From a virus (taxonomy: Duplodnaviria; Caudoviricetes), in IMG/VR virus record IMGVR_UViG_3300048670_001593, positions 14,718 through 78,717 of that record: a stretch of DNA of 64,000 nt. One strand, written 5' to 3'. The translations under genes were made by a program, and so were the position numbers. Below the pieces are notes generated by a model, which worked only from the letters and a program-made list of their open reading frames with translations, did no database searches and had not been told where the DNA came from. How positions within the stretch are numbered: position 1 is the first letter of the stretch; every line of letters starts with the position of its first letter. Shown here one piece after another: positions 3,651 through 24,617 of this stretch.

Positions 3651-3668
3651 GGCCAGCCATAAATGGTC
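3651..3668 (+). promoter_or_regulatory. Candidate translational operator hairpin of the DNA polymerase mRNA
   Basis: GGCCA-GCCATAAA-TGGTC: 5-bp stem (one G-U) with 8-nt loop directly before the AGAGGA SD; same geometry as the T4 gene 43 operator. Confidence 0.35.
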
Positions 3669-3680
3669 AGAGAGGAAATA

Positions 3681-6341
3681 ATGAGTTATGTCGACGCACT
3701 TTTTGACCGCGCCAAAGATCAAATCCACGTGGTTGAAAGAATTGATGGTCTTCGCATCTATCAGGAATACCCTGCCAATTACGTGCTCTATTACGATGAC
3801 CCACGTGGCAAACACCGGACCATCTACGATACCCCAGTCAGCAGATTCAGCACCAGGGTAGGTAAAGAGTTTCATAAAGAATTAAAAATCAACTCAGGCA
3901 AACGCATCTGGGAATCAGACATCAATCCTGTGTTCCGTTGTCTGGAAGAAAATTATCTGGGTAAAACTGCTCCCCGACTACAAACAGCATTTTTCGATAT
4001 TGAAGTGGATTTTGATCCTGTCAGGGGCTTTAGTCCACCAGAAGATCCTTTCAATCCAGTAACAGCAATTACCATTTATTTTGATTGGCTGGACAAGATT
4101 GTGACTCTGGCCACACCACCCAAAAGTCTGAGTTGGGAGACTGCAGAAGAAATTGCCAGAAAATATGACAATTGCTTCCTGTTTGATCGTGAAGAAGATC
4201 TATTGGACACCTTCCTGAATCTGATCGACGATGCAGACATATTGAGTGGCTGGAACTCCGAAGGCTTCGATATTCCCTACATGGTCATGCGTACCAAACG
4301 TGTGCTCAGCAAAGACGATTGTCGACGATTTTGTTTATGGGGACAAATGCCCAAGGAACGCACATTTGAACGATTTGGGGCCAGTCAATTGACCTTTGAT
4401 CTGATTGGGCGTGTGCACCTGGACTACATGCAACTCTATCGCAAGTACACCTATGAAGAGCGCCACAGTTATAGTCTGGACGCCATTGGTGAATATGAGC
4501 TGGAAGAGCGTAAAACTCAGTATGAAGGCACTCTGGACCAGTTGTATAATCGAGACTTTGAAAAGTTTATCGAATATAACCGCCAGGACACCATGCTGTT
4601 GGCCAAATTGGATAAAAAGCTAAGATTCCTGGACCTGGCCAATGAACTGGCACACGACAACACTGTGCTACTGCAAACCACCATGGGTGCTGTGGCAGTT
4701 ACTGAACAGGCTATTATCAACGAAGCACATCAACTAGGGCTAGTGGTGCCCAATCGAACTGGTCGAGAAGATCAGGGCGACACTCAGGCCGCCGGAGCCT
4801 ATGTGGCTTATCCCAAACAGGGCATGCATGATTATGTGGGAGCCATAGACATCAACTCACTGTACCCCAGTGCCATTCGTGCGCTGAACATGGGTCCCGA
4901 AACCATTGTGGGTCAGTTACGGCCCACCATGACTGATCATTACATCAATCAGAAAATTGCCAATGGCAGTAGTTTTGCTGATGCCTGGGAAGGCATATTT
5001 GGTAGTCTGGAATACACCGCTGTGATGAACATGGAACCCGGCACTGAGCTCACCATTGACTGGGAAAACGGCACCAGCGATGTGCTCAGTGCTGCTGACG
5101 TCTGGCGATTGGTTTTCGACAGCAATCAGCCCTGGATCCTCAGTGCCAATGGCACCATATTCAGTAACGAACGCAAGGGCATTGTGCCCGGCCTGCTGGA
5201 ACGCTGGTACGCAGAACGTAAGGAAATGCAGGCCAAGAAAAAAGAGGCAACCGAACCCGAAGACATCGCATTCTGGGACAAGCGTCAGTTGGTTAAGAAA
5301 ATTAATCTAAACTCATTATATGGCGCTATTTTGAATCCCGGATGTCGATTCTTTGACCATCGCATTGGTCAGAGCACCACACTGACCGGCAGAGTGATTG
5401 CCCGACACATGGATGCATACATCAACGAATGCATCATGGGCAGTTATGATCATACTGGCCATGCAATCATATACGGTGACACCGATTCGTGCTATTTCAG
5501 TGTCTGGCCGGCCATTCGAGACGATGTTGCTGCAGGTCGCATGGAATGGAACAAAGATCTTGCAGTGGCACTGTATGATAACATCGCCGATCAGGTCAAT
5601 GACAGTTTTCCTGCATTTTGTGAACGTGCATTCCATACTCCCCGCCGGCAAGGCGAACTGATCCGGGGAGGCCGAGAACTGGTGGCCATCAAGGGCTTGT
5701 TTATCAAGAAGAAACGCTATGCAGTGCTGATCTATGATCTGGAAGGCAAGCGTCTGGATACTCACAGCAAACCCGGCAAACTCAAAGCCATGGGCCTGGA
5801 TCTGAAACGTTCAGACACGCCCAAGGTTGTGCAGGACTTCCTGAGTGATGTTCTGCTGGATGTTCTGACTGGCGCCACCAGAGACAGTATTATTGAAAAG
5901 GTCCGTGAATTTAAACTGGCGTTCACTGAGAGACCAGCCTGGGAAAAAGGCACGCCCAAACGTGTAAATAATCTGACCAAATATACCCGAGAAGAAGAAC
6001 GACTGGGCAAAGCCAATATGCCGGGCCACGTTCGTGCAGCCATGAATTGGAATAATTTGCGCAGAATGCATGGTGATAACTACAGTATGAGCATTGTGGA
6101 TGGCATGAAGACCATTGTGTGTAAACTAAAAGACAATCCCCTGGGGTATACCAGCGTGGGTTACCCCACAGATGAAACACATATACCACAGTGGTTTAAG
6201 GATTTGCCATTTGATGACGGTGAGATGGAAACCACCATCGTGGACCAAAAGGTGGAAAACCTGTTGGGTGTGTTGGATTGGAAGATTTCGGAAAACACAC
6301 AAATCAAAACCACTTTTGATGATTTTTTTAGCTTTGAATAA
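3681..6341 (+). CDS. Family B DNA polymerase (T4 gp43-like) with 3'-5' exonuclease
   Basis: ExoI DIEVD, ExoII WNSEGFD, motif A DINSLYPS, motif B KINLNSLYG, motif C YGDTDS; start at ATG 3681 after AGAGGA. Confidence 0.97.
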   Translation: MSYVDALFDRAKDQIHVVERIDGLRIYQEYPANYVLYYDDPRGKHRTIYDTPVSRFSTRVGKEFHKELKINSGKRIWESDINPVFRCLEENYLGKTAPRLQTAFFDIEVDFDPVRGFSPPEDPFNPVTAITIYFDWLDKIVTLATPPKSLSWETAEEIARKYDNCFLFDREEDLLDTFLNLIDDADILSGWNSEGFDIPYMVMRTKRVLSKDDCRRFCLWGQMPKERTFERFGASQLTFDLIGRVHLDYMQLYRKYTYEERHSYSLDAIGEYELEERKTQYEGTLDQLYNRDFEKFIEYNRQDTMLLAKLDKKLRFLDLANELAHDNTVLLQTTMGAVAVTEQAIINEAHQLGLVVPNRTGREDQGDTQAAGAYVAYPKQGMHDYVGAIDINSLYPSAIRALNMGPETIVGQLRPTMTDHYINQKIANGSSFADAWEGIFGSLEYTAVMNMEPGTELTIDWENGTSDVLSAADVWRLVFDSNQPWILSANGTIFSNERKGIVPGLLERWYAERKEMQAKKKEATEPEDIAFWDKRQLVKKINLNSLYGAILNPGCRFFDHRIGQSTTLTGRVIARHMDAYINECIMGSYDHTGHAIIYGDTDSCYFSVWPAIRDDVAAGRMEWNKDLAVALYDNIADQVNDSFPAFCERAFHTPRRQGELIRGGRELVAIKGLFIKKKRYAVLIYDLEGKRLDTHSKPGKLKAMGLDLKRSDTPKVVQDFLSDVLLDVLTGATRDSIIEKVREFKLAFTERPAWEKGTPKRVNNLTKYTREEERLGKANMPGHVRAAMNWNNLRRMHGDNYSMSIVDGMKTIVCKLKDNPLGYTSVGYPTDETHIPQWFKDLPFDDGEMETTIVDQKVENLLGVLDWKISENTQIKTTFDDFFSFE

Positions 6342-6343
6342 CC

Positions 6344-8422
6344 ATGAAGAAAAAAATAGAACTAGTCAACGTAACTGATCTGGAATCCATGTCCAGGACC
6401 CCATTGACCACATCTGATGTGGTTTTTGATCACATGGATCGTTTTACTCGACATCGGATGACGTTTGACAAAGATCTGGGGCTCCGAGGCAAATACTGTT
6501 ATCACCCTTTTAATACAGTGACCATTGACAGCCGGGGCGACTGTTATGTATGCGTCTGCCAGGCCTGGTTGCCCATTAGTGTGGGGAACATTCTGGAATT
6601 CGACAGTCTGACAGCAATCGTGCAGAGTGCCCGAGCCAGAGAAATACAAGCCAGCATTATTGACGGCACCTACAAATACTGTGACCACAAAACCTGCCAT
6701 CTGATTACCAGCAATAATCTGGAAGGACGTATTGATCACAGACCTGACACCATAAATTGGATTGTATTTGCCATTGACGATAGTTGTAACCTGACTTGTC
6801 CCAGTTGCAGAACAGACATGATTTTCTATAATCGAGGCGAAGATTTTGATCGACGCATGCGAATCAGCGATCACCTGGTAAAACTGATTCAGGAGCACGA
6901 CCATTTCTTAAAATTTACTCTGAGCGGTGATGGAGATCCGTTTGCCAGTCACGTATACCGCAACATGTTGGAAAAACTGGATCTCAGCAAGCGTGGGACC
7001 ACTGAAATTGAAATCGTAACCAATGGCATCCTGGCCAAGGACCATTGGCACCGGATGACTGGCATTCATAAAAATGTCATGAGATTCAAGATTAGTTTTG
7101 ATGCTGGTAGCCCAGAGGTTTACTCACTAACACGCAGGGGCGGTAACTGGAACAAGTTAATTGAAAGTTCAGAACACATCATCAAGTGGAAGCAAAAAAA
7201 TTATGCAGACATGGAACTTGTGGCAAATTTTGTAGTACAAACCACAAATTTTCGTGACATGCACCGATTTGTAAAGCTGACCCAGGATCTGGGATTTGAT
7301 GAAATCTCCTTCCAGAAAGTCACTGATTGGGGCAAATGGTACGATAACGGCATCAACCGATTTGTAGAACATGCTGTATGGATGCCTGATCATGAAAATT
7401 ATCAGGAATTGGTGGAAATCATCAATGATCCCATCATGACCGATAGGAAAATTAATTTAACCAATCTTTCACATCTGAGAAAAACGGTATTGTCTTTGTC
7501 GGAATTGGTGGATTTAAAAAACTCAGTCAATACCAAACTCAATACCAATAATTTGACATCAGAAACAGACAGTTATAAAACTCAGTTTGAAGCCATTAAA
7601 AATATTTCATCTGTTTACGAAAAAAACTTGAAGGCAATGTCTGACATTGCCGACGAAATCAATGTTAACTTAAAATTTTTAGATAACGAAATAGAAAATC
7701 TCAACACTAAAATTGATCAGGAAATTGATTCCATAACCGCCAACTATCATCAGAGAGGGTATAAAGTAAATGGGCATTTTGCTACCAATCGAACCAATCC
7801 AGAAACCGAAAGAGGATCAAGAAAATTACCAATGCTGGAGGAAACTCGCCAGGAAATCATTGCCCTAATTCAAAAGTATTCAGACTGGAAATATCCGGGT
7901 CTGGAAATTGGCCCCGGCGACGGTATCTGGACCGAATACCTGGTGGCAAATGAACCATTGTATCTGGTAGACATACATAATGAGTTTTTACAGTCCACTA
8001 CATCAAAATTCAATCCGGTCTATCAGAATCGATTGAGACTATATACAACCAGCGAAACTGATCTAAGTATGCTTCCACAAAATCAATTTGGTTTTGTGTT
8101 TTCATGGAATGTGTTCAATTATCTGACCACGGATCTAATAGATCAGTATCTGAAAGAAATTTTCAGTGTTTTGAGGCCCGGCGGAGTTTGCATGTTTAGC
8201 TATAATAATGCTGAACGCGTGCACTGTGCAAAGTATGTAGAACAGGGGTACATGAGTTATATGCCCAAAAAACTGTTAACCAAATTAATACATCAACACG
8301 GGTTCGAAATAATTGGTCTGGAAGATAGGAATGAATACATCGCCTGGGTCGAAATACGTAAACCTGGCGTTCTGAACACCATCAAAGCCCACCCTGTTCT
8401 GGGTGAAGTTATCCAAAAATAA
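6344..8422 (+). CDS. Fusion: radical SAM (SPASM-first) + coiled-coil linker + class I SAM-dependent methyltransferase
   Basis: N-half CYHPF...CYVCVC, CNLTCPSC, LSGDGDPF; C-half GLEIGPGDG glycine motif and FVFSWNVFNY. Confidence 0.8.
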   Translation: MKKKIELVNVTDLESMSRTPLTTSDVVFDHMDRFTRHRMTFDKDLGLRGKYCYHPFNTVTIDSRGDCYVCVCQAWLPISVGNILEFDSLTAIVQSARAREIQASIIDGTYKYCDHKTCHLITSNNLEGRIDHRPDTINWIVFAIDDSCNLTCPSCRTDMIFYNRGEDFDRRMRISDHLVKLIQEHDHFLKFTLSGDGDPFASHVYRNMLEKLDLSKRGTTEIEIVTNGILAKDHWHRMTGIHKNVMRFKISFDAGSPEVYSLTRRGGNWNKLIESSEHIIKWKQKNYADMELVANFVVQTTNFRDMHRFVKLTQDLGFDEISFQKVTDWGKWYDNGINRFVEHAVWMPDHENYQELVEIINDPIMTDRKINLTNLSHLRKTVLSLSELVDLKNSVNTKLNTNNLTSETDSYKTQFEAIKNISSVYEKNLKAMSDIADEINVNLKFLDNEIENLNTKIDQEIDSITANYHQRGYKVNGHFATNRTNPETERGSRKLPMLEETRQEIIALIQKYSDWKYPGLEIGPGDGIWTEYLVANEPLYLVDIHNEFLQSTTSKFNPVYQNRLRLYTTSETDLSMLPQNQFGFVFSWNVFNYLTTDLIDQYLKEIFSVLRPGGVCMFSYNNAERVHCAKYVEQGYMSYMPKKLLTKLIHQHGFEIIGLEDRNEYIAWVEIRKPGVLNTIKAHPVLGEVIQK

Positions 8423-8481: not shown

Positions 8482-9216
8482 ATGCGTGATTATCTGTTGG
8501 ACATTGTCAAGAACACTTATGGCCTGGGCATCATTAATCTGATCAAAGTTACTGGCTCTGAATCAGAGACCAAAATCGAAGCCATTGCCGAAGACAGGTC
8601 AGTTATCCTGCAGGGCAAGATCAATAATCCTGTGCCGGAATTCATTGGCACGTTTGGTATGCCTAATCTGGGCAAGCTCAACACCATCCTTAACATTCCA
8701 GAATACAAAGAAGATGCCAAAATTACACTGAGCACACAGGTGCGAAATGATGAAATCGTGCCGGTGGGGCTGGACTTTGAAAACTCCAGCAAGGATTTTA
8801 ATAATAACTATCGCTTTATGAATCAGGAATTGATCACTGAAAAGGTCAAGAGTGTCATTAGCCGCAAAACCATCAACTGGGCAGTGGAATTTCAACCCAC
8901 TGCTGCCAACATCCAGCGTCTGAAGTTCCAGGCCAGTGCCAACTCAGAAGAGTCCACTTTCACTGCCAAGACTGAGGGCACAGATCTCAAGTTTTATTTT
9001 GGAGATCACAGTAGTCATGCCGGTAATTTTGTGTTTCAGAACAACATTAGCGGAAAACTTACCAAGACCTGGAGTTGGCCTGTGGCAGCAGTAATTTCAA
9101 TTCTGAACCTGGCTGGAGACAAGACCTTCCAATTTAGTGATGACGGGGTGGCGCAAATCACTGTGGACACCGGACTGGCAACCTACAATTACCTGCTGCC
9201 AGCACAAAGCAAGTAA
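8482..9216 (+). CDS. Probable DNA polymerase sliding clamp (gp45-like)
   Basis: 244 aa with alternating beta/alpha pattern and replication-core position; no diagnostic motif. Confidence 0.55.
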   Translation: MRDYLLDIVKNTYGLGIINLIKVTGSESETKIEAIAEDRSVILQGKINNPVPEFIGTFGMPNLGKLNTILNIPEYKEDAKITLSTQVRNDEIVPVGLDFENSSKDFNNNYRFMNQELITEKVKSVISRKTINWAVEFQPTAANIQRLKFQASANSEESTFTAKTEGTDLKFYFGDHSSHAGNFVFQNNISGKLTKTWSWPVAAVISILNLAGDKTFQFSDDGVAQITVDTGLATYNYLLPAQSK

Positions 9217-9220
9217 AATG

Positions 9221-9244
9221 ACCATACGACCTTGGTCGTATGGT
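9221..9244. repeat. Perfect inverted repeat / hairpin between the clamp gene and dpdA
   Basis: ACCATACGACC-TT-GGTCGTATGGT; no U-tract follows. Confidence 0.85.
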
Positions 9245-9271
9245 AGACATTCTAAATAAAGAGGAAATAAG

Positions 9272-10903
9272 TTGACCTTTGATCGCGATAACTTAACCGC
9301 AAAACAAAAGGATTATGCTATATTTTTGCCTGCTCTGAGCGGCTTCTATGCTACATATGTGGGCAAGCAGCGTCACGATTCCAATTTTGTACCGCAGAGC
9401 CGTATACCAGCGGATTTTGAAAATGGCATCGAAGGACTCAACTGGCTCAATCCTGACCAGGCGTATTTTCCCTATAAATGGGCACTGTATAGTGCAGGAC
9501 ACGCTGATCTGGACATCAATAGAGACAGCCCCAAAGAGGACATGATACGCAATCGAGATCGTTCCACAAGTTTTGTGGTGGGAGATTCCGGTGGATTTCA
9601 GATTGGCAAGGGGGTCTGGGAAGCCGACTGGAAGGACATCAACTGCCCGCGAGCACAACGCAAGCGAGAGCAGGTGTTGTCCTGGATGGACGCCTACATG
9701 GATCGAGGCATGGTACTGGACATTCCAGCCTGGACCTGTGATTATCCTCCAGGACGTCAGGCATCGGGAGTCAACAGTTATGCCGATGCAGTGACCAGTA
9801 CCTACATCAATAACGACTACTTCATGCGCAATCGCAATGGTAACTGCAAGTTCCTGAACGTACTGCAGGGGCAAACTCATGCACAGTCTGACGACTGGTA
9901 TGACCGCATGAAGAAGTACTGCGACCCCCGGCAATACGAAACTCCGTTTGAAGGCTGGGCCATGGGCGGTCAGAACAAATGTGACGTGCATCTGACTCTG
10001 CGCAGACTGGTGGCACTGAAATTTGACGGTCTTTTGGAGCGTGGACAACACGACTGGTTGCACGTGTTGGGTACCAGCAAGTTGGAATGGGCTTGCCTGA
10101 TGACAGACATCCAACGTGCAATTCGACAGCACCACAATGAAAACTTTACCATCAGTTTTGACTGTGCCAGTCCATTCCTGGCCACAGCCAACGGTCAGGT
10201 ATACATGAGAACTGAGGTGGAAGATCGCCGCAAGTGGGTATATCGCATGATGGCCAGCGCGGACGATAAAAAATATGCAGTGGATCAGCGCCGTTATGGA
10301 GACGCAGTGGTGGCTGATAAAATTTTTGAGACCTTTACTGAAAGCCCAGTGAGTGAACGTCTAAAAATCAGTGATGTCTGCATCTACAAGGATGGCATCA
10401 GAAAAACTGATCAGGAGTTGCAGGGAGAAAAGTTCAACTTCCAGAATCCCGATCACTATCACGTGGTCCCAGATCTCAATAAGATTGGAAAAATCGGCCG
10501 AACCAGTTGGGACAGCTTTAGTTATGCTCTGCAAATGGGTCACAATGTCTGGAGTCATATCAATGCTGTTCAGGAAGCCAATCGTCGTTACGATTCGGGC
10601 ATCGTTCCCCGAATGCTGGTCAGAGAAAAGTTCGATCGCATCACATTCCGTCAGGTAGTGGATGAGATTTTTTCCACCAGCGATCGAGTTCGTGCTGAAG
10701 CACTGGTTGACGAGCACAGTAAATTCTGGATGGACATTCCTGGTTCCAATGGCACCACCGGCAAGAAAACCATAAATTCCATAACCGCTTACCAGAGTTT
10801 GTTTGAGGAAGTGGGTGCACCTGCTGAAACCTGCGTGGACTTTCATCGTGATGACAGCGGCATCGATGAAGGTAAACTTGACGATCTGGAAATGTCCATT
10901 TGA
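9272..10903 (+). CDS. dpdA: TGT-fold guanine transglycosylase, DpdA-like (7-deazaguanine insertion into DNA)
   Basis: GDSGGFQ, MVLDIP, GWAMGG, HVLG, SFDCASP match TGT motifs; no CxCxxC Zn site; folE, queD and queE are in the window; TTG start after GAGGA. Confidence 0.8.
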   Translation: MTFDRDNLTAKQKDYAIFLPALSGFYATYVGKQRHDSNFVPQSRIPADFENGIEGLNWLNPDQAYFPYKWALYSAGHADLDINRDSPKEDMIRNRDRSTSFVVGDSGGFQIGKGVWEADWKDINCPRAQRKREQVLSWMDAYMDRGMVLDIPAWTCDYPPGRQASGVNSYADAVTSTYINNDYFMRNRNGNCKFLNVLQGQTHAQSDDWYDRMKKYCDPRQYETPFEGWAMGGQNKCDVHLTLRRLVALKFDGLLERGQHDWLHVLGTSKLEWACLMTDIQRAIRQHHNENFTISFDCASPFLATANGQVYMRTEVEDRRKWVYRMMASADDKKYAVDQRRYGDAVVADKIFETFTESPVSERLKISDVCIYKDGIRKTDQELQGEKFNFQNPDHYHVVPDLNKIGKIGRTSWDSFSYALQMGHNVWSHINAVQEANRRYDSGIVPRMLVREKFDRITFRQVVDEIFSTSDRVRAEALVDEHSKFWMDIPGSNGTTGKKTINSITAYQSLFEEVGAPAETCVDFHRDDSGIDEGKLDDLEMSI

Positions 10904-10928
10904 CATCTGGGAAAATTTCAATTATTAT
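10900..10928 (+). promoter_or_regulatory. sigma70-type promoter overlapping the dpdA stop codon
   Basis: TTGACA-N17-TATTAT. Confidence 0.7.
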
Positions 10929-10948
10929 AAAACTCAACAGGAGGAAAT

Positions 10949-11539
10949 ATGAAAACTGCGCCGCTGATAAAAATTACTAAAATCAAAGCAAATCTTGTAG
11001 GAAAACAAGTTCCCACAACTCACAATGGTGCTGCCGGTAGATATATTGAAGATTTGATGATGGAACAGGGATTTAAGATAAATCAAGGTGCTGGGCCAGA
11101 TCTAGACTTTGGACCAGGAAACCAGATTGAAATGAAAAGTCGAGATGAAGACGCAACTAGCCCACACACTGTGTGTAATGTTTCATTTCAGGAAATTCTG
11201 AATTCTTCATATGAAAATTCGCCTGTCTATAAAAAAATCCAGAAGCAATTTAGAGTTAAGATTAAAGATGAAGTGATTGTCAGCCAACAGACCTATGATC
11301 TTAGTTCAGATTGGATACAAGATTTAATCAAGGATGCCTGGACAGCCTGTCAGAAAAATGCAATTGCAGGACTAACAACTAAATGCACAATTCCAGGAAC
11401 CCAATTTGGTTATATTGAAATTATACACAATGAGCAGACCAATAGTACAATTTACAGATTCAGACTATCTAACGGCGCAATGAAAAAAATTGAAAGTATT
11501 AGTAATTCCACTGTTAATGATCTTTTTGATTTGGTGTAA
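10949..11539 (+). CDS. PD-(D/E)xK nuclease, MutH/Sau3AI/MvaI-BcnI restriction-endonuclease-like
   Basis: GAAGRYIEDL...N...GPD...IEMKS matches the GxxGxxxE...PD...ExK pattern of that family. Confidence 0.65.
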   Translation: MKTAPLIKITKIKANLVGKQVPTTHNGAAGRYIEDLMMEQGFKINQGAGPDLDFGPGNQIEMKSRDEDATSPHTVCNVSFQEILNSSYENSPVYKKIQKQFRVKIKDEVIVSQQTYDLSSDWIQDLIKDAWTACQKNAIAGLTTKCTIPGTQFGYIEIIHNEQTNSTIYRFRLSNGAMKKIESISNSTVNDLFDLV

Positions 11540-11541
11540 CA

Positions 11542-11985
11542 ATGACTCTAAACGAACGCGAAACTATTGAACGTCGAAAAGATGCTGCAGAACGTAAAAT
11601 TTTTGTGCAGTTTCAAAAAGAAGGCATACATTGTTATCCTGCAGCAGCTACCGACCCTCAACTAAACACCGGAGACACCTATGATGTATCGTTCCTTGCT
11701 AGTCCTCATCGCCACATTTTCCATTTCAGGGTGTCAATCAGTGTGTGGCACAACGACAGGGACATCGAGTTCATCCAATTCAAACGCTGGCTCGAATCGC
11801 TGTATAGTGGCCAGATTCTAGAGCTCAATTATCGTAGTTGTGAAATGATGGCAGACGATTTGTATCTACAAATTGCCTTAAAGTATCCCGATCGCGATGT
11901 TCACATCGAAGTCAGTGAAGATGGCGAGAATGGGTGTTCAATTGAGTACAATCGTACTCGTCCTTATCAATCTGTTGTAGTTTAA
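11542..11985 (+). CDS. dpdL: QueD-like T-fold protein, DpdL-like (predicted 7-carboxy-7-deazaguanine decarboxylase)
   Basis: LASPHRHIF fits LxxxHRHxF (the QueD CxxxHGH site replaced); SCEMMA and VSEDGENG match T-fold C-terminal motifs; the DpdL motif is recalled from the literature and not checked. Confidence 0.65.
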   Translation: MTLNERETIERRKDAAERKIFVQFQKEGIHCYPAAATDPQLNTGDTYDVSFLASPHRHIFHFRVSISVWHNDRDIEFIQFKRWLESLYSGQILELNYRSCEMMADDLYLQIALKYPDRDVHIEVSEDGENGCSIEYNRTRPYQSVVV

Positions 11986-11998
11986 AGGAGTTGTAACT

Positions 11999-12190
11999 GT
12001 GTCAAAGCTCAGTAAGTTTATCAAGGTTTCAGACAATTTCACCATCAATCGTTATGACAATGGCTTTATGTTGGAAGTTTACGGTTGTGACAGCAATGAT
12101 GACTGGCACACTGCCAAGATTATCTGCACAACTGAAGCAGAATTGCTGGCACTAATCCAGCAAGTTAACTCAATCAATCTTGATGCATAA
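11999..12190 (+). CDS. Hypothetical protein
   Basis: GTG start after AAGGAG, 63 aa. Confidence 0.6.
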   Translation: MSKLSKFIKVSDNFTINRYDNGFMLEVYGCDSNDDWHTAKIICTTEAELLALIQQVNSINLDA

Positions 12191-12202
12191 GGAGTTCTAA
12201 AA

Positions 12203-12424
12203 ATGTCTAATCCCGTGTGGCTCAACAAGTACCTGACCATGAAGCCCGAAGTTCGTCAAATTTTTAACGATCTGGAAGCCTGGCTCAACTATTGCCGTTT
12301 TAATCTCATCAAGTATGATCCGGCTGATCTATACAAGAGCCCAGAATATCGTGCCTGGCAAGAGAAACGCCAGCGCAAGCAACAACAGCGACAAAATCGT
12401 GAGTATCGCCCCCGCACCAACTAA
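12203..12424 (+). CDS. Hypothetical protein
   Basis: ATG after TAAGGAG, 73 aa. Confidence 0.65.
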   Translation: MSNPVWLNKYLTMKPEVRQIFNDLEAWLNYCRFNLIKYDPADLYKSPEYRAWQEKRQRKQQQRQNREYRPRTN

Positions 12425-12438
12425 CCATAGGAAAAATC

Positions 12439-13200
12439 ATGGATAGAATTGTCATCGTTACCGGAGGATTTGATCCTGTACATTCCGGTCACATTTCTTA
12501 TCTGAGTCATGCCAAACAACTGGGTGATTATCTGGTGGTGGGTCTGAATTCCGACGACTGGTTGACTCGCAAAAAAGGTCGCCCGTTCATGCCCTGGGAT
12601 GAGCGCATGGTTGTTCTGGGAAACCTGCACATGGTGGACGAAGTCATTGATTTTGACGACACTGACGGCACTGCTTGTGATGCTATTCGTCGAGTTCAAG
12701 CCAGGTATCCTGACAGCCATGTGATTTTTGCCAATGGTGGTGACCGTACTTCTAAAAATATTCCAGAAATGGTATTTGATGATGTGGAATTTGTATTTGG
12801 TGTTGGTGGTACAAACAAGGCAAATTCAAGTTCCTGGATTTTAGAAGAATGGAAAGCCCCCCGGACACCCAGGCCCTGGGGCTACTATCGTGTGCTGCAT
12901 GAAGATGGCAACCAGGTCAAACTCAAAGAACTCACTGTGGAACCAGGTCAGCGACTGAGTATGCAACGCCACCAGGATCGTGCCGAGCACTGGTTTGTGT
13001 CACAGGGCACAGCAACAGTGTATACTGTGAATCCACGCACCACAGACGTGGAACTCACTGGTGTATATCAGCAGTTTGATCATGTTCACATCCCACGCAC
13101 TGAGTGGCATCAGTTGTGCAATGAGCAAGATGCACCGCTTAAAATTATTGAAATTCAATATGGCGAGCGGTGTGTGGAAGAGGACATTGAACGCGTATGA
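12439..13200 (+). CDS. HIGH-family cytidylyl/nucleotidyltransferase fused to a mannose-6-phosphate-isomerase-type cupin
   Basis: TGGFDPVHSGH, VVGLNSD, FANGGDR; C-terminal RPWG...LSMQRHQDRAEHW. Confidence 0.85.
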   Translation: MDRIVIVTGGFDPVHSGHISYLSHAKQLGDYLVVGLNSDDWLTRKKGRPFMPWDERMVVLGNLHMVDEVIDFDDTDGTACDAIRRVQARYPDSHVIFANGGDRTSKNIPEMVFDDVEFVFGVGGTNKANSSSWILEEWKAPRTPRPWGYYRVLHEDGNQVKLKELTVEPGQRLSMQRHQDRAEHWFVSQGTATVYTVNPRTTDVELTGVYQQFDHVHIPRTEWHQLCNEQDAPLKIIEIQYGERCVEEDIERV

Positions 13201-14270
13201 AGACCATCTGGATTGTTCCCATCGAGCCCATTGATCAGCGATATACTGCACAGTGGTACACCAACATTCCTGAGATCTTGAAATCTCGTATTGATGCACT
13301 TGGGCTAGACGCCCACGAAATCAGAATCGTAGACGGAGTTCAACCCCAGTCTGGCACCACCACAGGTGCCTTTTTGGATTTTGCGGTTACTAACATCTAC
13401 AAGGCCAGCCAGGCTCAGCGTATTTCAGAAGCATTTAGTTCAGGAGCGGTCAAGTCTGGAGATGTGTTCCTGGTCACAGATGCCTGGAATTTTGTCATCA
13501 CCCCCATCAAATACATGAGCGACTTGCTGAATATTCCAGTGGAAATTCATGGTATCTGGCATGCCGGGGCATATGATCCCACAGACATTCTGGGGTATCA
13601 GATGCAGAAGCCCTGGCCCTGGCATGCTGAGCAAAGTTGGTTTCATGCCTGTGATTACAATTACTACGCCACTGAGTTCCATCGTTCAATGTTCTTGACG
13701 AATCTCAACATTGATTCCAAAGTTTACGGGCACAAGGCTATTCGCAGCGGACAGCCACATGACCCCTTGATTGCTGAAATTTCAGTGAACTTTGACAATG
13801 CTGAGCGCAACGGTGCAGTCATGTGGCCACATCGTTATAACAGCGACAAGCAACCAGACATTGCTGAAGATCTGGCTCAGCTGATGCCGGTGACCATTAC
13901 TCAGAAAATGTCACTGAACAAGAGTCAGTATTATCAGACCATGGCCCAGCACAGTGTAATTTTTAGTTGCGCTCTACATGAAAACCTGGGAATCAGTGTC
14001 ATGGAAGCGGTGCTCAGTGGGGTCATCCCAGTGTTGCCCGACAGATGTAGTTATGCTGAAATGTATTTGCCAGACTTCCTGTATCCCAGTGAATGGACTG
14101 CGAACTGGGAGAAATATCAGCAGCATCGAACTGAATTGGTGGCGTTTATTCAGGAACGAATTCAGAATCGAGAACAGTATCTGCCAGCACTGCGTGAACA
14201 ACGAGAAATTCTAGTCAGAGACTATCTCAATGCCACAGTTATGATTGATAAAATTCTAAAAAATCAATGA
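13197..14270 (+). CDS. GT-B-type glycosyltransferase
   Basis: C-terminal FSCALHENLGISVMEAVLSGVIPVLPDRCSYAE resembles the GT4 ExFGxxxxEA motif. Confidence 0.7.
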   Translation: MKTIWIVPIEPIDQRYTAQWYTNIPEILKSRIDALGLDAHEIRIVDGVQPQSGTTTGAFLDFAVTNIYKASQAQRISEAFSSGAVKSGDVFLVTDAWNFVITPIKYMSDLLNIPVEIHGIWHAGAYDPTDILGYQMQKPWPWHAEQSWFHACDYNYYATEFHRSMFLTNLNIDSKVYGHKAIRSGQPHDPLIAEISVNFDNAERNGAVMWPHRYNSDKQPDIAEDLAQLMPVTITQKMSLNKSQYYQTMAQHSVIFSCALHENLGISVMEAVLSGVIPVLPDRCSYAEMYLPDFLYPSEWTANWEKYQQHRTELVAFIQERIQNREQYLPALREQREILVRDYLNATVMIDKILKNQ

Positions 14271-15118
14271 GTTATTTTAATTTATTAGATCAAATACATA
14301 ACAATCTTTCATCTCCGAAAAGATCATGGTATTATGAATCGTTAACCAACAAAGACACTCTGTTGATCACAGCGGGAGATAGCTGGACCTGGGGTGATAG
14401 TCTTCTTGACATTGATGTCGAAGCTGGTAAGTATGACCATCCCGACAGAGTCAACAAAATATATGGTGCATTGCTGGCAAAAAAACTAGATGCTGATTTT
14501 ATTAATCTTGCCAAATGCGGTGGTGCGAATATAGAGTTCTGTGATTGGGTAAAAACTCTTTTACCAATAGTCAAGACAAAATATAAAAAAATTATTGTAG
14601 CAATTAGTCTGACTGAGAACTGCCGAGAATCATATGGGGATAGAATCTGGGTCCCTGAAGAACAACCCAGTCTTGAAGAATATTTGTGTGAATACGAAAA
14701 AAATATGTTTGAAAATCTTGCTCTGACCTGCAAGCAACATAGTTCAGTTCACTTTGTAATTTCTAGAAACTTTACCTACAGCTTTGATAGTAATATTTTG
14801 CTACTTAAAAATTACTTAACTGAAAAGATTTGGGTTGATTGTTTAGCTGAATATCAAAACAATCAAAATTATCCCACAGATGTCAGGTTCCTTTCTGACA
14901 TTGCACTAGTACCATTGCACAAACTACTCAAAGAAATTAAACTTTATAACAAGTATAAATTTCAATTTATGAGTTTATATGCCAGCAGTGAATTGGCAAT
15001 CTCATGGTTAGAAAAAAGCAAGTTAAATTACAAAAAAGCCACAAAACATCCAAACGAACTCGGGCATGAGATTTGGGCAGATTATCTGTACAATATAATT
15101 GTTGCCCGTTTACATTGA
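14267..15118 (+). CDS. SGNH/GDSL-like hydrolase or acyltransferase
   Basis: TAGDSWTWGD, INLAKCGGAN, HPNELGHEIWA. Confidence 0.7.
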   Translation: MSYFNLLDQIHNNLSSPKRSWYYESLTNKDTLLITAGDSWTWGDSLLDIDVEAGKYDHPDRVNKIYGALLAKKLDADFINLAKCGGANIEFCDWVKTLLPIVKTKYKKIIVAISLTENCRESYGDRIWVPEEQPSLEEYLCEYEKNMFENLALTCKQHSSVHFVISRNFTYSFDSNILLLKNYLTEKIWVDCLAEYQNNQNYPTDVRFLSDIALVPLHKLLKEIKLYNKYKFQFMSLYASSELAISWLEKSKLNYKKATKHPNELGHEIWADYLYNIIVARLH

Positions 15119-15143
15119 CTTAATATTATGATACTTTTATAAT
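15115..15143 (+). promoter_or_regulatory. sigma70-type promoter
   Basis: TTGACT-N17-TATAAT. Confidence 0.8.
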
Positions 15144-15220
15144 AAACTTAAAGAAAACAGCCACAAGATTAAAAATGAAGAAACCCCAGCTGACCAATCC
15201 ACCACCCAACAAATAAGGCA

Positions 15221-15808
15221 ATGAGTAATCCCTTCGATACAATTTCAGAATTTGAGCAGGCACTGGCAGAGTATACTGGTGCCCCGTATGCCATCGCAAC
15301 TGATTGTTGCACTCATGCACTGGAACTGTGTCTGCGCTATCAGAAGCCTGAATTTGTGCATTTTACTGCGTTCACCTATCTGAGTGTGCCCATGACCATG
15401 CACAAACTGGGCATTGGGTTCAGTTATCTGGATGAAACCTGGCTGGGGGAATATCAGATACACGGCACCACCGTCTGGGATAGTGCCAGACGACTGGAAT
15501 CCGGCATGTATCGACCTGGTCAGATGCAATGTCTGAGTTTTGGTCGTGACAAGCCCCTGGAAATTGGTCGTGGTGGTGCCATATTATTAGACGACCCCCT
15601 GGCTTATGAAATCATGCGCAGGCAGAGATACGATGGCAGAATGCTGGAAATCACCCCCTGGGAAAATCAGAGAATATTCCATGTTGGTTATCATTATCGA
15701 ATGAACCCCGAAGAAGCACGGATAGGTCTGGAAAAACTCCAGTCATTTGAACCCAACACCAGAATTAAAAAATATCCAGATCTGCGAAAAATTATTATTA
15801 GCAGTTAA
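15221..15808 (+). CDS. Short DegT/DnrJ/EryC1/StrS-like PLP aminotransferase
   Basis: FEQALAEYTGAPYAIATDCCTHALEL, WDSA, CLSFGRDKPLEIGRGGAIL; only 195 aa. Confidence 0.7.
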   Translation: MSNPFDTISEFEQALAEYTGAPYAIATDCCTHALELCLRYQKPEFVHFTAFTYLSVPMTMHKLGIGFSYLDETWLGEYQIHGTTVWDSARRLESGMYRPGQMQCLSFGRDKPLEIGRGGAILLDDPLAYEIMRRQRYDGRMLEITPWENQRIFHVGYHYRMNPEEARIGLEKLQSFEPNTRIKKYPDLRKIIISS

Positions 15809-15866
15809 TGAAAAAGCTAAATATGTTGAGTATTCCGACTGTAGGAAAATTCAGATTGTCAATTAA
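15783..15866 (+). pseudogene. Orphan C-terminal fragment resembling the end of the upstream DegT-like gene
   Basis: An alternate frame reads EKLLLAVNEKAKYVEYSDCRKIQIVN*, versus the gene end EKLQSFEPNTRIKKYPDLRKIIISS*. Confidence 0.35.
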
Positions 15867-16110
15867 AACGTTAGTCGGAAGAATTTTTCGCTTGAAAAAA
15901 TGCACAATTTGGTAAGTGTCTCTAATGTGATTCCCATAACATTTTTGTAACCACTGTCAAAGCATATAGATTTTGATGGAGCATTTTTAGATTTTAACTA
16001 TATTTTGGAAAACACACCTTAGAGCAACTAATTATTAGATTAGTGCTGCACAGCAAGAGTAAGTAGATAAAAGAGATAACAGATAAAGTTAAAAAAAATC
16101 TAAAATAAAA

Positions 16111-18466: not shown

Positions 18467-19279
18467 ATGCCTAACTATGCTTCACCTGAAGAACAAAAAA
18501 TAGAAAATCTTAGATCAAACAAACTGGTACAAGAAGCACCCTATCATCCCGGCTACGAAGATGCAGTGGTTGGCGACAAAGGCTATGAAGAGGCCAATCT
18601 GGCAGATGCTATTCGCTTCCGAATGCAACGTGACCGGAAACGTTTTTGGGCTGGCGACAACATCAGCGACTATTTGCATGACGGTGATAAAGAAATCTTA
18701 ATCAACGAAGCTACAGAAGCATTTGAACGAGTATTAGACACTTTGCTGATCGATCGTGAAACAGATCCTAACTCAAGGGGCACAGCACGTCGTCTCGCTA
18801 AAATGTATTTTAATGAAATTATGGGAGGTCGATATGATCCTGCTCCATGCGCCACGGCCTTCCCCAACGACAGTCAGGAACGCTACGAGGGCATGCTGGT
18901 GGTGCGCAGTGAACTGCGTAGTATGTGCAGTCACCATCATCAGCCAGTCAGCGGTGTGGCCTACATTGGTATCATTGCCGCACAAAAGTTGATTGGTCTC
19001 AGCAAGTACACGCGGATTGCCCAGTGGTGCGCCCGTCGTGGCACTCTGCAGGAAGAACTCTGCAATGATATTGCCCGAGAGATCCAGAAAGCCACTGGCA
19101 GCGAAAACGTTGCTGTTTACATACAGGCCACACATGGCTGCTGTGAAAACAGGGGGATAATGGCACACAGCAGTCTGACACAGACCACAGTGCTCAAAGG
19201 CTCATTTTACAGTGATCCCGGCACCAAGAAAGAATTTTTTGATAACATCAAGTTGCAACAAGAGTTTGCTCCCAGGTAA
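18467..19279 (+). CDS. folE: GTP cyclohydrolase I
   Basis: SMCSHHHQP, IGLSKYTRI, RRGTLQEEL, ATHGCCENRG. Confidence 0.95.
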   Translation: MPNYASPEEQKIENLRSNKLVQEAPYHPGYEDAVVGDKGYEEANLADAIRFRMQRDRKRFWAGDNISDYLHDGDKEILINEATEAFERVLDTLLIDRETDPNSRGTARRLAKMYFNEIMGGRYDPAPCATAFPNDSQERYEGMLVVRSELRSMCSHHHQPVSGVAYIGIIAAQKLIGLSKYTRIAQWCARRGTLQEELCNDIAREIQKATGSENVAVYIQATHGCCENRGIMAHSSLTQTTVLKGSFYSDPGTKKEFFDNIKLQQEFAPR

Positions 19280-19341: not shown

Positions 19342-21369
19342 ATGAAGTTCACTAAAATTGTAGCTGCACTGATGGCAGCTGGTGTCGTTGCCAGTGCTGC
19401 GCAGGCCGAAACGCTAAATTTAACTCCCTATAACACTGCAGAATACACTGCCAACACCATCAGTGTGGGCAAGGCCGACGATGACTTTCTCCGAGCCATT
19501 AACGCCAACGCAGCCTGGGCCCGTGGATATACTGGTCGGGGAGTGCTGGCTCTGGTCATGGACACTGGCATCAATGCCAACCACAGTGAGTTTATTGGCC
19601 GTATTGCCTACAATCGAGACTTCATCAATAGCAAGAACGGTACCAGGGACGTCTCAGGCCATGGTACCAATATTGCTGGACTGATTGCAGCCAACTGGGA
19701 CGGCGTGGGCATGGCTGGTGTGGCACCCGATGCCAAATTGGCCATTGCCAAAATCTCAGACGGAGTTGGCGTTAACATGACCCAAGCACGATATGCCATG
19801 CAGTGGGCAGACGGACTTGGTGCAGTGGTGGGCAACCTCAGCACCAACATGGCCTATGAGACGTCCTTCCTGAAGAATTTTGTCAAATTGTCGGACGGTC
19901 GATACTATAACACTGATTCCCGTTACCTGGGTCGTTACTATGGCGGCGAAGATCCTGGCATGTGGGCCAAGTATCTGGGCAAGGACATGATTCTTGTGAA
20001 TTCTGCTGGCAATAGCAACTTACCATATCCGCAACTGCCTGGCACTTTGGCCAAGGCAGTGGATGCCAAGGGCAACCTGGTGCTGGGTGGTCGAATGATT
20101 ATTGTGGGTGCCTGGAATCTGCAAACCAATGCTGTGTCTGGTTACAGCAACCGTGCTGGTGACATCTGCATGACTGTGCAGAATGGCGCATGTCAGGACA
20201 AATATCGAATCAGCGATTTTTATATCCTGGCCCCGGGCAATGACTTTGGTCCTGACAAGGCCACCAATGGCTATAAGTTGTTCACCGGTACCAGTCAGGC
20301 CGCAGGTGTGGTCACTGGCGCAGTGGCGGTCATCAGTCAGATGTGGCCCAACATGCGGGGCGAAAACATTGTTAAACTGCTGATGGTCACGGCCAATAAG
20401 GATCTACCCAACTATAATGTCAATGTCATGGGCCAGGGCCTGTTGGATCTGGAAAAAGCCACTCGACCCTATGGTGTGGTGGGAATCCCCACCACTGGGC
20501 GTACCAAATCTGCGGTTAGTGGTGTTGTCACCAGTGCAGGCTTGAGTTCCATTAACAGTAAACTCAGCAGCGTCATGGTCACTGACAGTTTTGATCGTGA
20601 CTTCTATGTGGATCTGAGCCGGACCACACAGAAACCACTGGACACCTTCAACCCAGTGGCTCGCCTGGACTTTTACCAGGACTACAATCCCTTCAATCGT
20701 CTGAATGCATTTACTTTTAGTCGTCAGGCTGTTGCTGGCAATACCACTGTCAAGTTGAGTGCCAACGATCAGTTGGGTACTGCCATGCTGAGCATGAACA
20801 ACACCTGGGTATCCCAAGCTGGATATGCTCTGGGGTTTACTGGTGGCATGCTGAACGAGCGGGGTGCCTGGGCAGGCAACAACATTGGCGGCAGTTTGGG
20901 CAATGTGGACAACAGTTACACAACATTTATTGGCGCCAATGCCAGTTACGGTCTAAATAATACCGACAGCGTGTTTGGTCATGTGTATGTGGCTGCAACT
21001 CAGGCAGCACTCAATCGTGGGCTGGTGAGTGACATCAGCACCACCTACAGTTACAGTTGGAGTTTGGGGTTGGATCACACCCAAGATCAGCACAGTGTGG
21101 GCGCAGTTGTAAGTCAACCAGTAACTGTGGTCAACGGCAGCATGGAACTGGCAATTCCCAAAGGTTATGATGCCAACGGCAACATCCGCTGGGACCGCAG
21201 CACAGTCAGTGCAGTCAGTGGCACACAAGAGTATGACCTGGGTGTATACTATAAGTTCAAGTCTGATGATGTTCGCGTGACCATGTATGCAGAACATCAG
21301 ATCAACTACTTGAATCAGGCCGGTGCCAACCGGAATGTCCTGGGGCTGGGCGTTTCGATGCAGTTTTAA
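19342..21369 (+). CDS. Secreted subtilisin-family (S8) serine protease with a beta-barrel/autotransporter-like C-terminus
   Basis: Signal peptide MKFTKIVAALMAAGVVASAAQA; triad DTG, HGT, GTSQA; oxyanion NSAGN; alternating beta-strands ending in terminal Phe. Confidence 0.85.
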   Translation: MKFTKIVAALMAAGVVASAAQAETLNLTPYNTAEYTANTISVGKADDDFLRAINANAAWARGYTGRGVLALVMDTGINANHSEFIGRIAYNRDFINSKNGTRDVSGHGTNIAGLIAANWDGVGMAGVAPDAKLAIAKISDGVGVNMTQARYAMQWADGLGAVVGNLSTNMAYETSFLKNFVKLSDGRYYNTDSRYLGRYYGGEDPGMWAKYLGKDMILVNSAGNSNLPYPQLPGTLAKAVDAKGNLVLGGRMIIVGAWNLQTNAVSGYSNRAGDICMTVQNGACQDKYRISDFYILAPGNDFGPDKATNGYKLFTGTSQAAGVVTGAVAVISQMWPNMRGENIVKLLMVTANKDLPNYNVNVMGQGLLDLEKATRPYGVVGIPTTGRTKSAVSGVVTSAGLSSINSKLSSVMVTDSFDRDFYVDLSRTTQKPLDTFNPVARLDFYQDYNPFNRLNAFTFSRQAVAGNTTVKLSANDQLGTAMLSMNNTWVSQAGYALGFTGGMLNERGAWAGNNIGGSLGNVDNSYTTFIGANASYGLNNTDSVFGHVYVAATQAALNRGLVSDISTTYSYSWSLGLDHTQDQHSVGAVVSQPVTVVNGSMELAIPKGYDANGNIRWDRSTVSAVSGTQEYDLGVYYKFKSDDVRVTMYAEHQINYLNQAGANRNVLGLGVSMQF

Positions 21370-21391
21370 AATCCTGACTTGGGAGAAGTCA

Positions 21392-21925
21392 ATGAACAAA
21401 GAATATTACAATTTTGATGACGTAAAAAAGCTGACCCAGGAAATTCTACGGCAGATCTCACTGGACGACTGGCGGCCAGATTATATCGTGGGCATTACCC
21501 GAGGCGGAGCCGTGCCTGCAGTGTTGCTGAGTCAGTATCTGAAAGTTCCCATGAACGCACTCAAGGTTAGTTTGCGGGATCATGCAGCTACAGAAAGCAA
21601 CTGTTGGATGGCTGAAGATGCATTTGGATATGAATATAACGATGCGCCGGCATCAGGTAATAGCAAAAAGAATATACTGATTGTGGATGATATCAACGAC
21701 AGTGGTGCAACGTTCAATTGGATCGTTGCAGACTGGCAAGCCAATTGTTTGCCCGATGATCCGCAATGGTCAGATGTCTGGAACAACAATGTGCGATTTG
21801 CAGTATTGGTGGACAACCTCAGCAGCAATTTCCAGGGCGTAGTTCGTTATGCTGGTGCAGAAATCAACAAGGCCGAGGCAGATGTCTGGATCAATTTTCC
21901 CTGGGAAGATTGGTGGCGCACCTAA
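21392..21925 (+). CDS. Type I purine phosphoribosyltransferase (Gpt-like)
   Basis: IVGITRGG and LIVDDINDSGAT PRPP-binding loop; FPWE terminus. Confidence 0.85.
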   Translation: MNKEYYNFDDVKKLTQEILRQISLDDWRPDYIVGITRGGAVPAVLLSQYLKVPMNALKVSLRDHAATESNCWMAEDAFGYEYNDAPASGNSKKNILIVDDINDSGATFNWIVADWQANCLPDDPQWSDVWNNNVRFAVLVDNLSSNFQGVVRYAGAEINKAEADVWINFPWEDWWRT

Positions 21926-22167
21926 TGGAATATCATATCAAAACTGACTTCAACTGGTGGCTAAAATGGTTGGCCTGTTGCGTGACATTGATTGCCGCAG
22001 GGTTGACCAGTGCTGGGTTAGACCCGTATAATGTTTATTTGCTAAACTTAGGCGCTACACTATATCTGATATGGAGTATTCGCATAAAAGAATGGAGCCT
22101 GGTGGTCATTAACGCTGGGCTAATCGCCATTTATTGTGCAGGCACATTGTACAGAATCTTGAACTAA
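21925..22167 (+). CDS. Small membrane protein
   Basis: TAATG coupling with the upstream gene; 80 aa, three hydrophobic segments. Confidence 0.6.
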   Translation: MEYHIKTDFNWWLKWLACCVTLIAAGLTSAGLDPYNVYLLNLGATLYLIWSIRIKEWSLVVINAGLIAIYCAGTLYRILN

Positions 22168-22193
22168 ATCTGAGGCGAAGCGATCGTAATCAA

Positions 22194-24176: not shown

Positions 24177-24617
24177 ATGATTGACAACAGTGATGCGCCA
24201 AGAAGTATGTCGGCAGACTTGTTTAAGACTAAAAAAGTCGATGCTGATCCCAAAGCCAAATCCCCACGCCGACCCAGGGAAAAAAAATCCGAGAAACAGA
24301 CTGTCAAAAATGAAAATATTTCTGCCAAGGATCGGGCATCGGCTGCAGGAGAGCCATACATTGTTATCCTCAGTATTGATGTCGATGCCAATGATCCTGG
24401 TCAAGGTGCATTTGAGTTGGATTGGAATGACATCTTTGTGGCCAGACTGATCAAGGCCGGATATCAGGGCAAGACTGATCAGGACATTGTGGACAATTGG
24501 TTCCGCACTGTTTGTAGAAATGTCCTGATGGAGACTTACGAACAAGAGATGGCTGACCCCGAAAAGCGATCCAGCAATCGACGTAATTTGGGCAACGGCA
24601 GGACTGAGATTTCATGA
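24177..24617 (+). CDS. Conserved phage hypothetical protein
   Basis: 146 aa; GAFELDWND.FV..L..AGY.G; operon-like spacing. Confidence 0.65.
   Translation: MIDNSDAPRSMSADLFKTKKVDADPKAKSPRRPREKKSEKQTVKNENISAKDRASAAGEPYIVILSIDVDANDPGQGAFELDWNDIFVARLIKAGYQGKTDQDIVDNWFRTVCRNVLMETYEQEMADPEKRSSNRRNLGNGRTEIS

Follow-up and report, generated by a model that had tools for sequence, protein, structure and literature searches.

We propose that a glycosyltransferase gene in a phage genome fragment probably encodes the tailoring enzyme in a module of the DpdL type for modifying DNA with 7-deazaguanine, the proposed end product being a sugar-bearing deazaguanine in DNA. The gene (13197-14270, plus strand) lies in a 64-kb stretch of DNA, hereafter the window, which is part of the 78.7-kb IMG/VR virus record IMGVR_UViG_3300048670_001593; the record is estimated at ~22% of a genome and therefore stems from a jumbo phage. 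The encoded protein, a 357-aa retaining glycosyltransferase of the GT4 type and GT-B fold (hereafter GT), follows dpdL (11542-11985), two small open reading frames (ORFs; 11999-12190 and 12203-12424) and a gene for a nucleotidyltransferase-cupin fusion (12439-13200) in one packed run at 11542-14270, all on the plus strand, as a preliminary description of the window had reported. That description had also placed dpdL directly after dpdA (9272-10903), which needs correction, as a 196-aa gene (10949-11539) intervenes between them.

Linkage of the glycosyltransferase with deazaguanine genes

Querying IMG/VR with GT recovered 68 loci, while a DpdL-profile query recovered 80. Among the GT-selected loci, FolE was found within 8 kb in 64, DpdL in 58, DpdA in 48 and a phosphoribosyltransferase in 41. 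DpdL is missing from ten loci, nine of which end within 2.5 kb upstream, so that it is present in 58 of the 59 informative loci. In the reverse direction, hidden Markov model (HMM) searches identified a GT-family gene in 73 of the 80 DpdL-selected loci, and the remaining seven end less than 1.5 kb after dpdL (73 of 73 informative loci). A much lower count obtained by tblastn (17 of 80) proved to be a sensitivity artefact, since HMM and hhalign comparisons recover a divergent subtype B that tblastn at 1e-5 misses altogether. At least 45 different gene orders occur among the GT-selected loci, and GT relatives at 26-30% identity also adjoin a motif-bearing DpdL. The pairing was found in at least seven kinds of cultured phage, including PA5oct-like phages (DpdA-GT-DpdL in PA5oct), ACP17 (DpdA-GT-DpdL-QueE), BUDD/X1 (GT-DpdA-DpdL-QueE in BUDD), BCSR5, Phosso (DpdL-GT-FolE) and BUCT-ZZ01 (DpdA-DpdL-GT, with GT directly 3' of dpdL).

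Bacterial and archaeal assemblies, scanned with a profile built from a 12-sequence GT alignment, yielded 45 GT loci, 32 of which carry DpdL and 29 DpdA, and the bacterial isolates among them include Methylobacterium, Magnetospirillum, Aurantimonas, Sulfitobacter and Shimia. DpdL was apparently missing near GT in five genomes, in three of which it lies 8-10 kb away. The only genes common to distant GT-bearing loci are FolE, QueD, QueE, DpdL, DpdA and GT, and no conserved hydroxylase that would provide a sugar handle is among them. The preliminary description had held that a distribution of GT independent of dpdA and dpdL would speak against a role in deazaguanine modification; the profiling revealed instead that GT travels with DpdL and DpdA, both in phages and in bacterial islands.

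Two of these islands carry further genes. The Magnetospirillum aberrantis island (locus L189, 2250-12829) comprises HEPN, a MASE1 kinase, a CoiA-like nuclease, GT, DpdL, DpdA and QueD, and in Shimia ponticola (locus L201, 7498-12324) a Vut_1/YhhQ-like precursor transporter stands directly 5' of GT, DpdA, an unassigned 585-aa protein and a second GT. Judged by gene content, the bacterial islands look like self-marking restriction systems. They resemble the bacterial Dpd system (DpdA/B/C with DpdD-K restriction) in a putative DpdA-based DNA mark and, as in Magnetospirillum, in an island setting next to nucleases, whereas the mark-making set here is DpdL and GT.

Fold, motifs and subtypes of the glycosyltransferase

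The AlphaFold2 (AF2) model of GT (pLDDT 95.7, predicted template modelling score 0.93) displays a complete GT-B architecture with two Rossmann-like domains and an inter-domain cleft. Structural comparison with VIA gave Z scores of 26.3 (6kih), 25.5 (6n1x) and 24.7 (3c4q) over 302-316 residues, and the matches, with Z scores of 26.3-21 over 275-328 residues, include sucrose-phosphate synthase (SPS), BshA, MshA, GlgM, LmbT and BGluT. GT shares with BshA, MshA and SPS (Z 26.3-24.6, root-mean-square deviation ~3 Å, 294-316 residues) the EX7E motif and the basic phosphate-binding pair, whereas the identity is 8-12%, the genomic context is entirely different and a family-specific E10-x4-R15-Y16-x3-W20 block stands where such enzymes usually have a glycine-rich loop at the N-terminus. 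The EX7E motif reads E262-NLGISVM-E270 in GT; in a 55-sequence family alignment E270 is invariant, and E262, together with R213 and K218, which form the basic pair for the donor diphosphate and are kept in GT, is conserved in at least 90%. By its sequence, GT is an intact enzyme.

Against the Pfam family Glycos_transf_1, GT scores 15.9 bits (gathering cut-off 26.4); 39 of the 55 GT-family members match this family at E <= 0.1 (best 5.5e-9) and three match Glyco_transf_4. The GT sequence profile found only a weak C-domain match in the PDB, to the Actinobacillus glucoside glucosyltransferase 8xsg. In the Foldseek comparison of the GT model, the phage DNA-glycosylation-pathway glycosyltransferase 9iqz ranked 46, and the T4 alpha- and beta-glucosyltransferases (AGT/BGT) are absent from the 50 best VIA rows. 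The acceptor-side N-domain and the donor side are equally well conserved, with 19 versus 16 near-invariant positions. Fused forms were sought among the relatives, none of which exceeds 625 aa, and relatives of 380-447 aa differ merely by a longer loop near residues 35-60. Overall charge was uninformative as a test of DNA binding: the isoelectric point (pI) of GT is 5.4, and acidity is shared by DpdA and the polymerase.

The window GT represents subtype A of the family, most members of which are viral. Subtype B, of ~400 aa and ~23% identical, has Asp in place of the first Glu of EX7E; its 401-aa representative, a neighbour of dpdL, was recognised as a divergent family member by hhalign (probability 99.5%, E 1e-22) and retains the N-terminal EPxxxRYTxQ block. 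Subtype B predominates in this phage clade, accounting for 56 of the 73 loci (L088, 9098-10303, and 55 others within L087-L165). One metagenomic phage cluster (L080) carries two GT-family paralogues (6001-7032 and 9582-10679), one beside DpdL and the other beside DpdA, which may correspond to two sugars or two steps.

DpdL, DpdA and the precursor pathway

DpdL of the window, a QueD paralogue of 147 aa and proposed 7-carboxy-7-deazaguanine decarboxylase, carries the signature LxxxHRHxF, which replaces the CxxxHGH of QueD, in the form LASPHRHIF, and matches phrog_17812 at 3e-34. It matches phiST (CGPG_00067) at 9e-8 by tblastn, the DpdL profile matches phiST at 2.5e-38, and the protein aligns with CGPG_00067 and ACP17 DpdL, the proteins that defined the family. 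Invariant residues are H30, H56, H58, H70 and E76, in keeping with the His/Glu metal site of DpdL, and S99-C100-E101; the Ser-Cys-Glu block (99-101) thus keeps a conserved cysteine, though the cysteine of the QueD motif CxxxHGH is lost. PA5oct DpdL has HFH in place of HRH. In Vibrio phage Bakedbeans, the last ~115 residues of gp176 (L076, 6212-7363; annotated at 383 aa) are DpdL, and the N-terminal 260 residues, which matched nothing that was compared, reflect a fusion or a mis-called start. A DpdA3-DpdL fusion was ruled out for gp176, as it has no similarity to phiST DpdA3.

The 543-aa product of dpdA gave an AF2 model with a pLDDT of 85.9, for which the top 50 Foldseek matches in the PDB are all tRNA-guanine transglycosylases (TGTs; E ~1e-6), and three aspartates are invariant in 25 homologs, namely D105 in DSGGFQ, D150 and D297 (FDCASP). 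The Pfam TGT family (PF01702) matched neither this protein nor anything in the whole record nor the PA5oct, ACP17 and BUDD homologs; the DpdA sequence profile found no match in the PDB, and Pfam at large, PHROGs and NCBIfam gave no match to the protein. On its modelled fold, the protein is a member of the DpdA/TGT superfamily. Its action on DNA is suggested indirectly, by analogy with PA5oct, the DNA of which contains a modified G of undetermined identity and resists cutting at G-containing restriction sites (PMC12191111).

Downstream on the same strand lie genes for FolE (GTP cyclohydrolase I, the first pathway step; 18467-19279; Pfam 3.8e-38), a phosphoribosyltransferase (21323-21925; PF00156, 1.8e-13), a QueE-like radical S-adenosylmethionine (SAM) enzyme (22134-23042; a weak Pfam match, homologous to the annotated QueE of PA5oct, BUDD and phiST) and QueD (26186-26782; 6-pyruvoyl-tetrahydropterin synthase (PTPS) family, PF01242, 1.9e-16). 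A SAM synthetase gene is also located downstream. QueC was found among none of the window ORFs scanned, the record being a genome fragment. The phosphoribosyltransferase, which travels with the module (see the 41 loci above) and is annotated as a xanthine-guanine phosphoribosyltransferase in BUCT-ZZ01, could recycle the guanine freed by DpdA or make a deazaguanine nucleotide.

A one-sided dependency that follows the DpdA type

Four complete phage genomes, those of phiST, RHph_I1_18, Bakedbeans and Ahp1, carry DpdL but no GT-family gene, and the window DpdA-family profile detects no DpdA in any of the four. KVP40 and pf16 possess the window-type DpdA with neither DpdL nor GT. GT occurs exactly where DpdL meets a classical-type DpdA, in a sample that is still small. 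That GT implies DpdL but not the reverse fits a tailoring step downstream on the DpdL branch. The view of GT as the marker of one exclusive DpdA clade was rejected, since the same DpdA profile matches KVP40 and pf16.

A close comparison is phiST, where DpdL and a short DpdA3 accompany plain 2'-deoxy-7-deazaguanine (dDG) in DNA, with deoxyguanosine (dG) fully replaced (Cui, Hutinet et al., NAR 2023, PMC10516641). FolE, QueD, QueE and a DpdL with LxxxHRHxF, with no QueC (in the window, among the ORFs scanned), are common to phiST and the window, as is a transglycosylase that inserts, or in the window would insert, the base into DNA. The differences are that phiST has no GT-family gene and that its DpdA3 (259 aa) goes undetected by the window DpdA profile, whereas the window has GT and sugar-supply genes. 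A remote GT relative in Xanthomonas phage PhiXhv-15 has GlmS and a deacetylase as neighbours, and DpdL is missing from that genome; this match spans only profile positions 77-293, and we read it as an outgroup GT4 enzyme.

Putative sugar-supply genes

The 253-aa protein encoded immediately upstream of GT is a fusion of two domains. Residues 1-115 form a HIGH-motif domain of the cytidylyl/adenylyltransferase kind (CTP_transf_like, PF01467, 2.4e-14), and residues 140-253 a cupin like that of type II phosphomannose isomerase (PMI; MannoseP_isomer, PF01050, 3e-24, 85.9 bits versus a cut-off of 23.6) with the metal motif QRHxxRAEHW. The C-terminal type II PMI cupin recalls the bifunctional ManC-type enzymes (GMP/PMI), whereas the N-terminus is the HIGH-motif PF01467 domain and not the GT-A-like NTP_transferase. 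The similarity of the fusion to HldE/RfaE domain II (ADP-heptose synthase) stays below equivalog level: it matches NCBIfam rfaE_dom_II (TIGR02199) at 9e-23 with 80.6 bits, against a cut-off of 181.5. The nearest PDB relatives of the transferase half are ethanolamine-phosphate, glycerol-3-phosphate and RfaE-like cytidylyltransferases. The protein fits no characterised equivalog, and is probably the maker of GT's sugar donor.

A full-length homolog of the fusion adjoins GT in 27 of the 68 GT-selected loci and adjoins subtype B in nine loci. Other relatives have the cupin alone or the transferase alone, and the window gene is therefore a fusion of two recurrent partners. Next to subtype B, the fusion (12 loci) and a pair composed of a dehydratase and a short DegT protein (28 loci) are mutually exclusive. 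By analogy, this combination of a constant acceptor with swappable donors would be the pattern of the glycosylated pyrimidines in T-even-like phages. Glycosylation of DNA bases is known for phage GT-B enzymes that are served by sugar-activation genes of their own, as in the T4 alpha/beta-glucosyltransferases acting on hydroxymethylcytosine and the arabinosyl-5-hydroxycytosine of RB69, DLP3 and HY126 (PMC13326640). These systems likewise combine GT-B enzymes and phage sugar isomerase or nucleotidyltransferase genes with base-modification genes, and their sugars vary among relatives. Their acceptors, however, are hydroxylated pyrimidines, whereas the only linked base pathway here leads to a purine analogue without a hydroxyl.

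The window also encodes a half-length DegT-like protein (195 aa; 15221-15808). Homologs occur in 41 of the 80 DpdL-selected loci, where this length is widely kept and a 4,6-dehydratase-like gene mostly precedes them, so that the protein is probably a functional short version and not a fragment. A second sugar-modifying pair, composed of an NAD-dependent dehydratase/epimerase and a DegT aminotransferase, both of full length, is encoded at 39871-41920, 25 kb from GT, and may feed the same or another transferase.

Proposed pathway and alternative explanations

In the pathway that we propose, FolE, QueD and QueE would, from what is known of their families, make 7-carboxy-7-deazaguanine, which DpdL would convert to 7-deazaguanine, a decarboxylation proposed by Cui et al. 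2023 (PMC10516641). The TGT-fold DpdA would exchange the base into phage DNA, and GT would transfer a sugar from a nucleoside diphosphate sugar, probably supplied through the nucleotidyltransferase-cupin fusion, to the deazaguanine moiety. Virion DNA would thereby bear a sugar-carrying 7-deazaguanine that blocks restriction. The preliminary description had suggested that GT adds a sugar to the deazaguanine, either as the base in DNA or as a precursor. This suggestion is supported in part, in that GT is locked to the DpdL and DpdA genes; from the observed folds, motifs, linkage, asymmetry and swappable cassettes we infer the acceptor, the choice between free base and DNA, the atom, the sugar and the biological role.

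The dependence of GT on the DpdA type, the small-molecule enzymes among its nearest folds and the HuiG precedent incline us slightly to the view that the sugar is added to the free base, ahead of its insertion, and not later to the base in DNA. The fold itself cannot decide between them, since the GT model matches small-molecule GT4 enzymes as well as the phage DNA-pathway enzyme 9iqz. HuiG, a GT4-type enzyme, glycosylates a free 7-deazapurine base (bioRxiv 10.64898/2026.04.15.718813); by its description, it resembles GT in its GT4 class and in an acceptor drawn from the FolE/QueD/QueE pathway, and differs in that it transfers from UDP-GlcNAc in the making of an actinomycete secondary metabolite, huimycin, whose type of cluster has no dpdA. 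A more specific version of our proposal is a real possibility, though somewhat short of probable. Virion DNA would contain 7-deazaguanine in glycosylated form, which would be the first purine in DNA to bear a sugar. Once DpdL has taken off the 7-carboxyl, the electron-rich pyrrole carbon would be open to a C-glycosidic sugar, or the sugar would otherwise be N-glycosidic; GT would act before insertion, on the free base, and the product would be inserted by the classical-type DpdA alone. Such selective insertion would explain why GT is found where DpdL pairs with that DpdA and never with DpdA3. As for other acceptors, ACP17 and BUDD, which are complete genomes with GT, have no gene of the thymidylate-synthase family (PF00303), and therefore no hydroxymethyl-pyrimidine acceptors by that route; the PF00303 gene in the window scores 344 bits, like a plain thymidylate synthase.

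Several points weigh against this proposal. The closest folds of GT (BshA, MshA, SPS and LmbT) act on small non-nucleobase acceptors. As 7-deazaguanine offers no obvious O-nucleophile, the sugar would have to be attached through an N- or C-glycosidic linkage, or as an ester on the carboxy form, and we know of no such linkage made by a retaining GT4 enzyme acting on DNA. With a record that covers so small a part of the genome, other acceptor pathways could be present elsewhere in the same phage. Many of the loci come from related jumbo phages, and part of the synteny is inherited and not independently selected. In addition, dpdA and dpdL of ACP17 yielded no dDG in E. coli in the study of Cui et al. 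2023 (PMC10516641), which mentions no glycosyltransferase.

Of the alternatives, it is conceivable but unlikely that GT glycosylates a soluble molecule that never enters DNA, such as a pterin intermediate, free 7-deazaguanine or its carboxy form, to give a glycoside that is stored, acts as an inhibitor or is a by-product made harmless, in the manner of the cyanobacterial tetrahydrobiopterin glucoside or huimycin. Small-molecule GT4 enzymes are indeed the best fold matches, tetrahydrobiopterin glucosyltransferases match GT (9v0l, Z 21.7; 5zes, Foldseek E 3e-8), GT is flanked by FolE and PTPS-family genes, and HuiG sets the precedent on a free 7-deazapurine. The pterin glucosyltransferases are, however, no closer to GT than a dozen unrelated GT4 enzymes, and GT, which lies among replication genes, follows DpdA in addition to DpdL, also in bacterial islands without FolE, QueD and QueE nearby. 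Moreover, a soluble product offers no rationale for being needed only where DpdL meets this type of DpdA. Less probable again is a merely positional linkage, in which GT would sugar a glycan of the virion or host surface, a protein or another base such as a hydroxylated pyrimidine. Phages do use glycosyltransferases and sugar pathways for these purposes, the window has a dehydratase/aminotransferase pair far from GT (39871-41920), and the PhiXhv-15 relative keeps company with GlmS and a deacetylase without any DpdL in its genome. That match, however, is limited to part of the profile, and the adjacency of GT persists through at least 45 rearrangements and divergence to 26% identity, in several families of phages and after transfer to bacteria. 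ACP17 and BUDD lack a ThyA-family hydroxymethylase, and no lipid-carrier or export genes lie near GT. An action on the cell surface or virion, which the preliminary description had left as a second option, found no support.

Glycosylated queuosine occurs in tRNA, and the only solved relatives of the DpdA-like protein are tRNA-guanine transglycosylases. These two points favour a third explanation, in which the TGT-fold enzyme and GT act on tRNA, where they would give a wobble base that resembles queuosine and carries a sugar, like the product of QTMAN in animals. We consider this the most improbable of the three, since none of the 55 GT-family members matches QTMAN_N (PF12038) at E <= 0.1, the 64-kb window contains no tRNA genes, and the bacterial islands couple the trio of GT, DpdL and DpdA to nucleases and HEPN, like restriction-modification systems. 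In addition, G-containing sites of PA5oct DNA resist restriction (PMC12191111), and dG is fully replaced in the DNA of phiST, itself a DpdL system (PMC10516641).

Implications of the proposed sugar-bearing deazaguanine

To our knowledge, and in the literature that we searched, all sugar-bearing DNA bases are pyrimidine derivatives, and a glycosylated purine analogue, if true, would be a new chemical class of DNA hypermodification. The preliminary description had known of no account of such a modification, and the literature searched indeed held no report of glycosylated deazaguanine in DNA. If true, the proposal might explain the modified G of PA5oct as well as the failed reconstitution with DpdA and DpdL of ACP17, where the two cloned genes have the GT gene between them. 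Work on type IV restriction, END nucleases and anti-phage DNA glycosylases would gain new substrates. The modification would also be relevant to Pseudomonas phage therapy, for which PA5oct-like phages are candidates. The prediction can be tested immediately, as GT is present in at least seven kinds of phage in culture, and four others have DpdL but no GT.

Locus layout and accessory genes

The module is part of a replication block on the plus strand, in which genes for a family B DNA polymerase (3663-6341), a radical-SAM/methyltransferase fusion (6344-8422) and a clamp-like protein (8482-9216) precede dpdA. A megablast search with window positions 9000-16000 found no match among phage records. 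From the 196-aa gene to a 283-aa gene downstream of GT (14267-15118), a single transcription unit is plausible: ATGA overlaps join the fusion gene to GT and GT to the 283-aa gene, an AAGGAG ribosome-binding site precedes each small ORF, the only promoter-like sites scoring 11/12 flank the stretch at 10900-10928 (5' of the 196-aa gene) and 15115, and no convincing terminator was found between 10900 and 15115.

The accessory genes of this unit are unevenly distributed. The 196-aa gene, an optional gene between dpdA and dpdL, has no Pfam, PHROG or NCBIfam match, and its homologs are rare (2 of 68 GT-selected and 5 of 80 DpdL-selected loci). The two small ORFs likewise have no match in Pfam, PHROGs or NCBIfam; homologs of the first, acidic one (63 aa, GTG start) occur in 8 of the 68 GT-selected and 4 of the 80 DpdL-selected loci, and those of the second (73 aa, pI 9.9) in 10 and 25, respectively. 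The 73-aa basic protein has an Arg/Gln/Lys-rich tail and recurs between dpdL and GT in viral loci and in four loci of metagenome-assembled genomes; it could be a nucleic-acid binder or a partner of the module. The 283-aa gene, translationally coupled to GT, gives weak Pfam signals of DUF6071 (0.0012) and GDSL/SGNH-like (Lipase_GDSL_2, 0.019) type and is a window-specific accessory, just two of the 68 GT-selected loci having a homolog; a second gene with a weak DUF6071 signal is located at 24614-25279.

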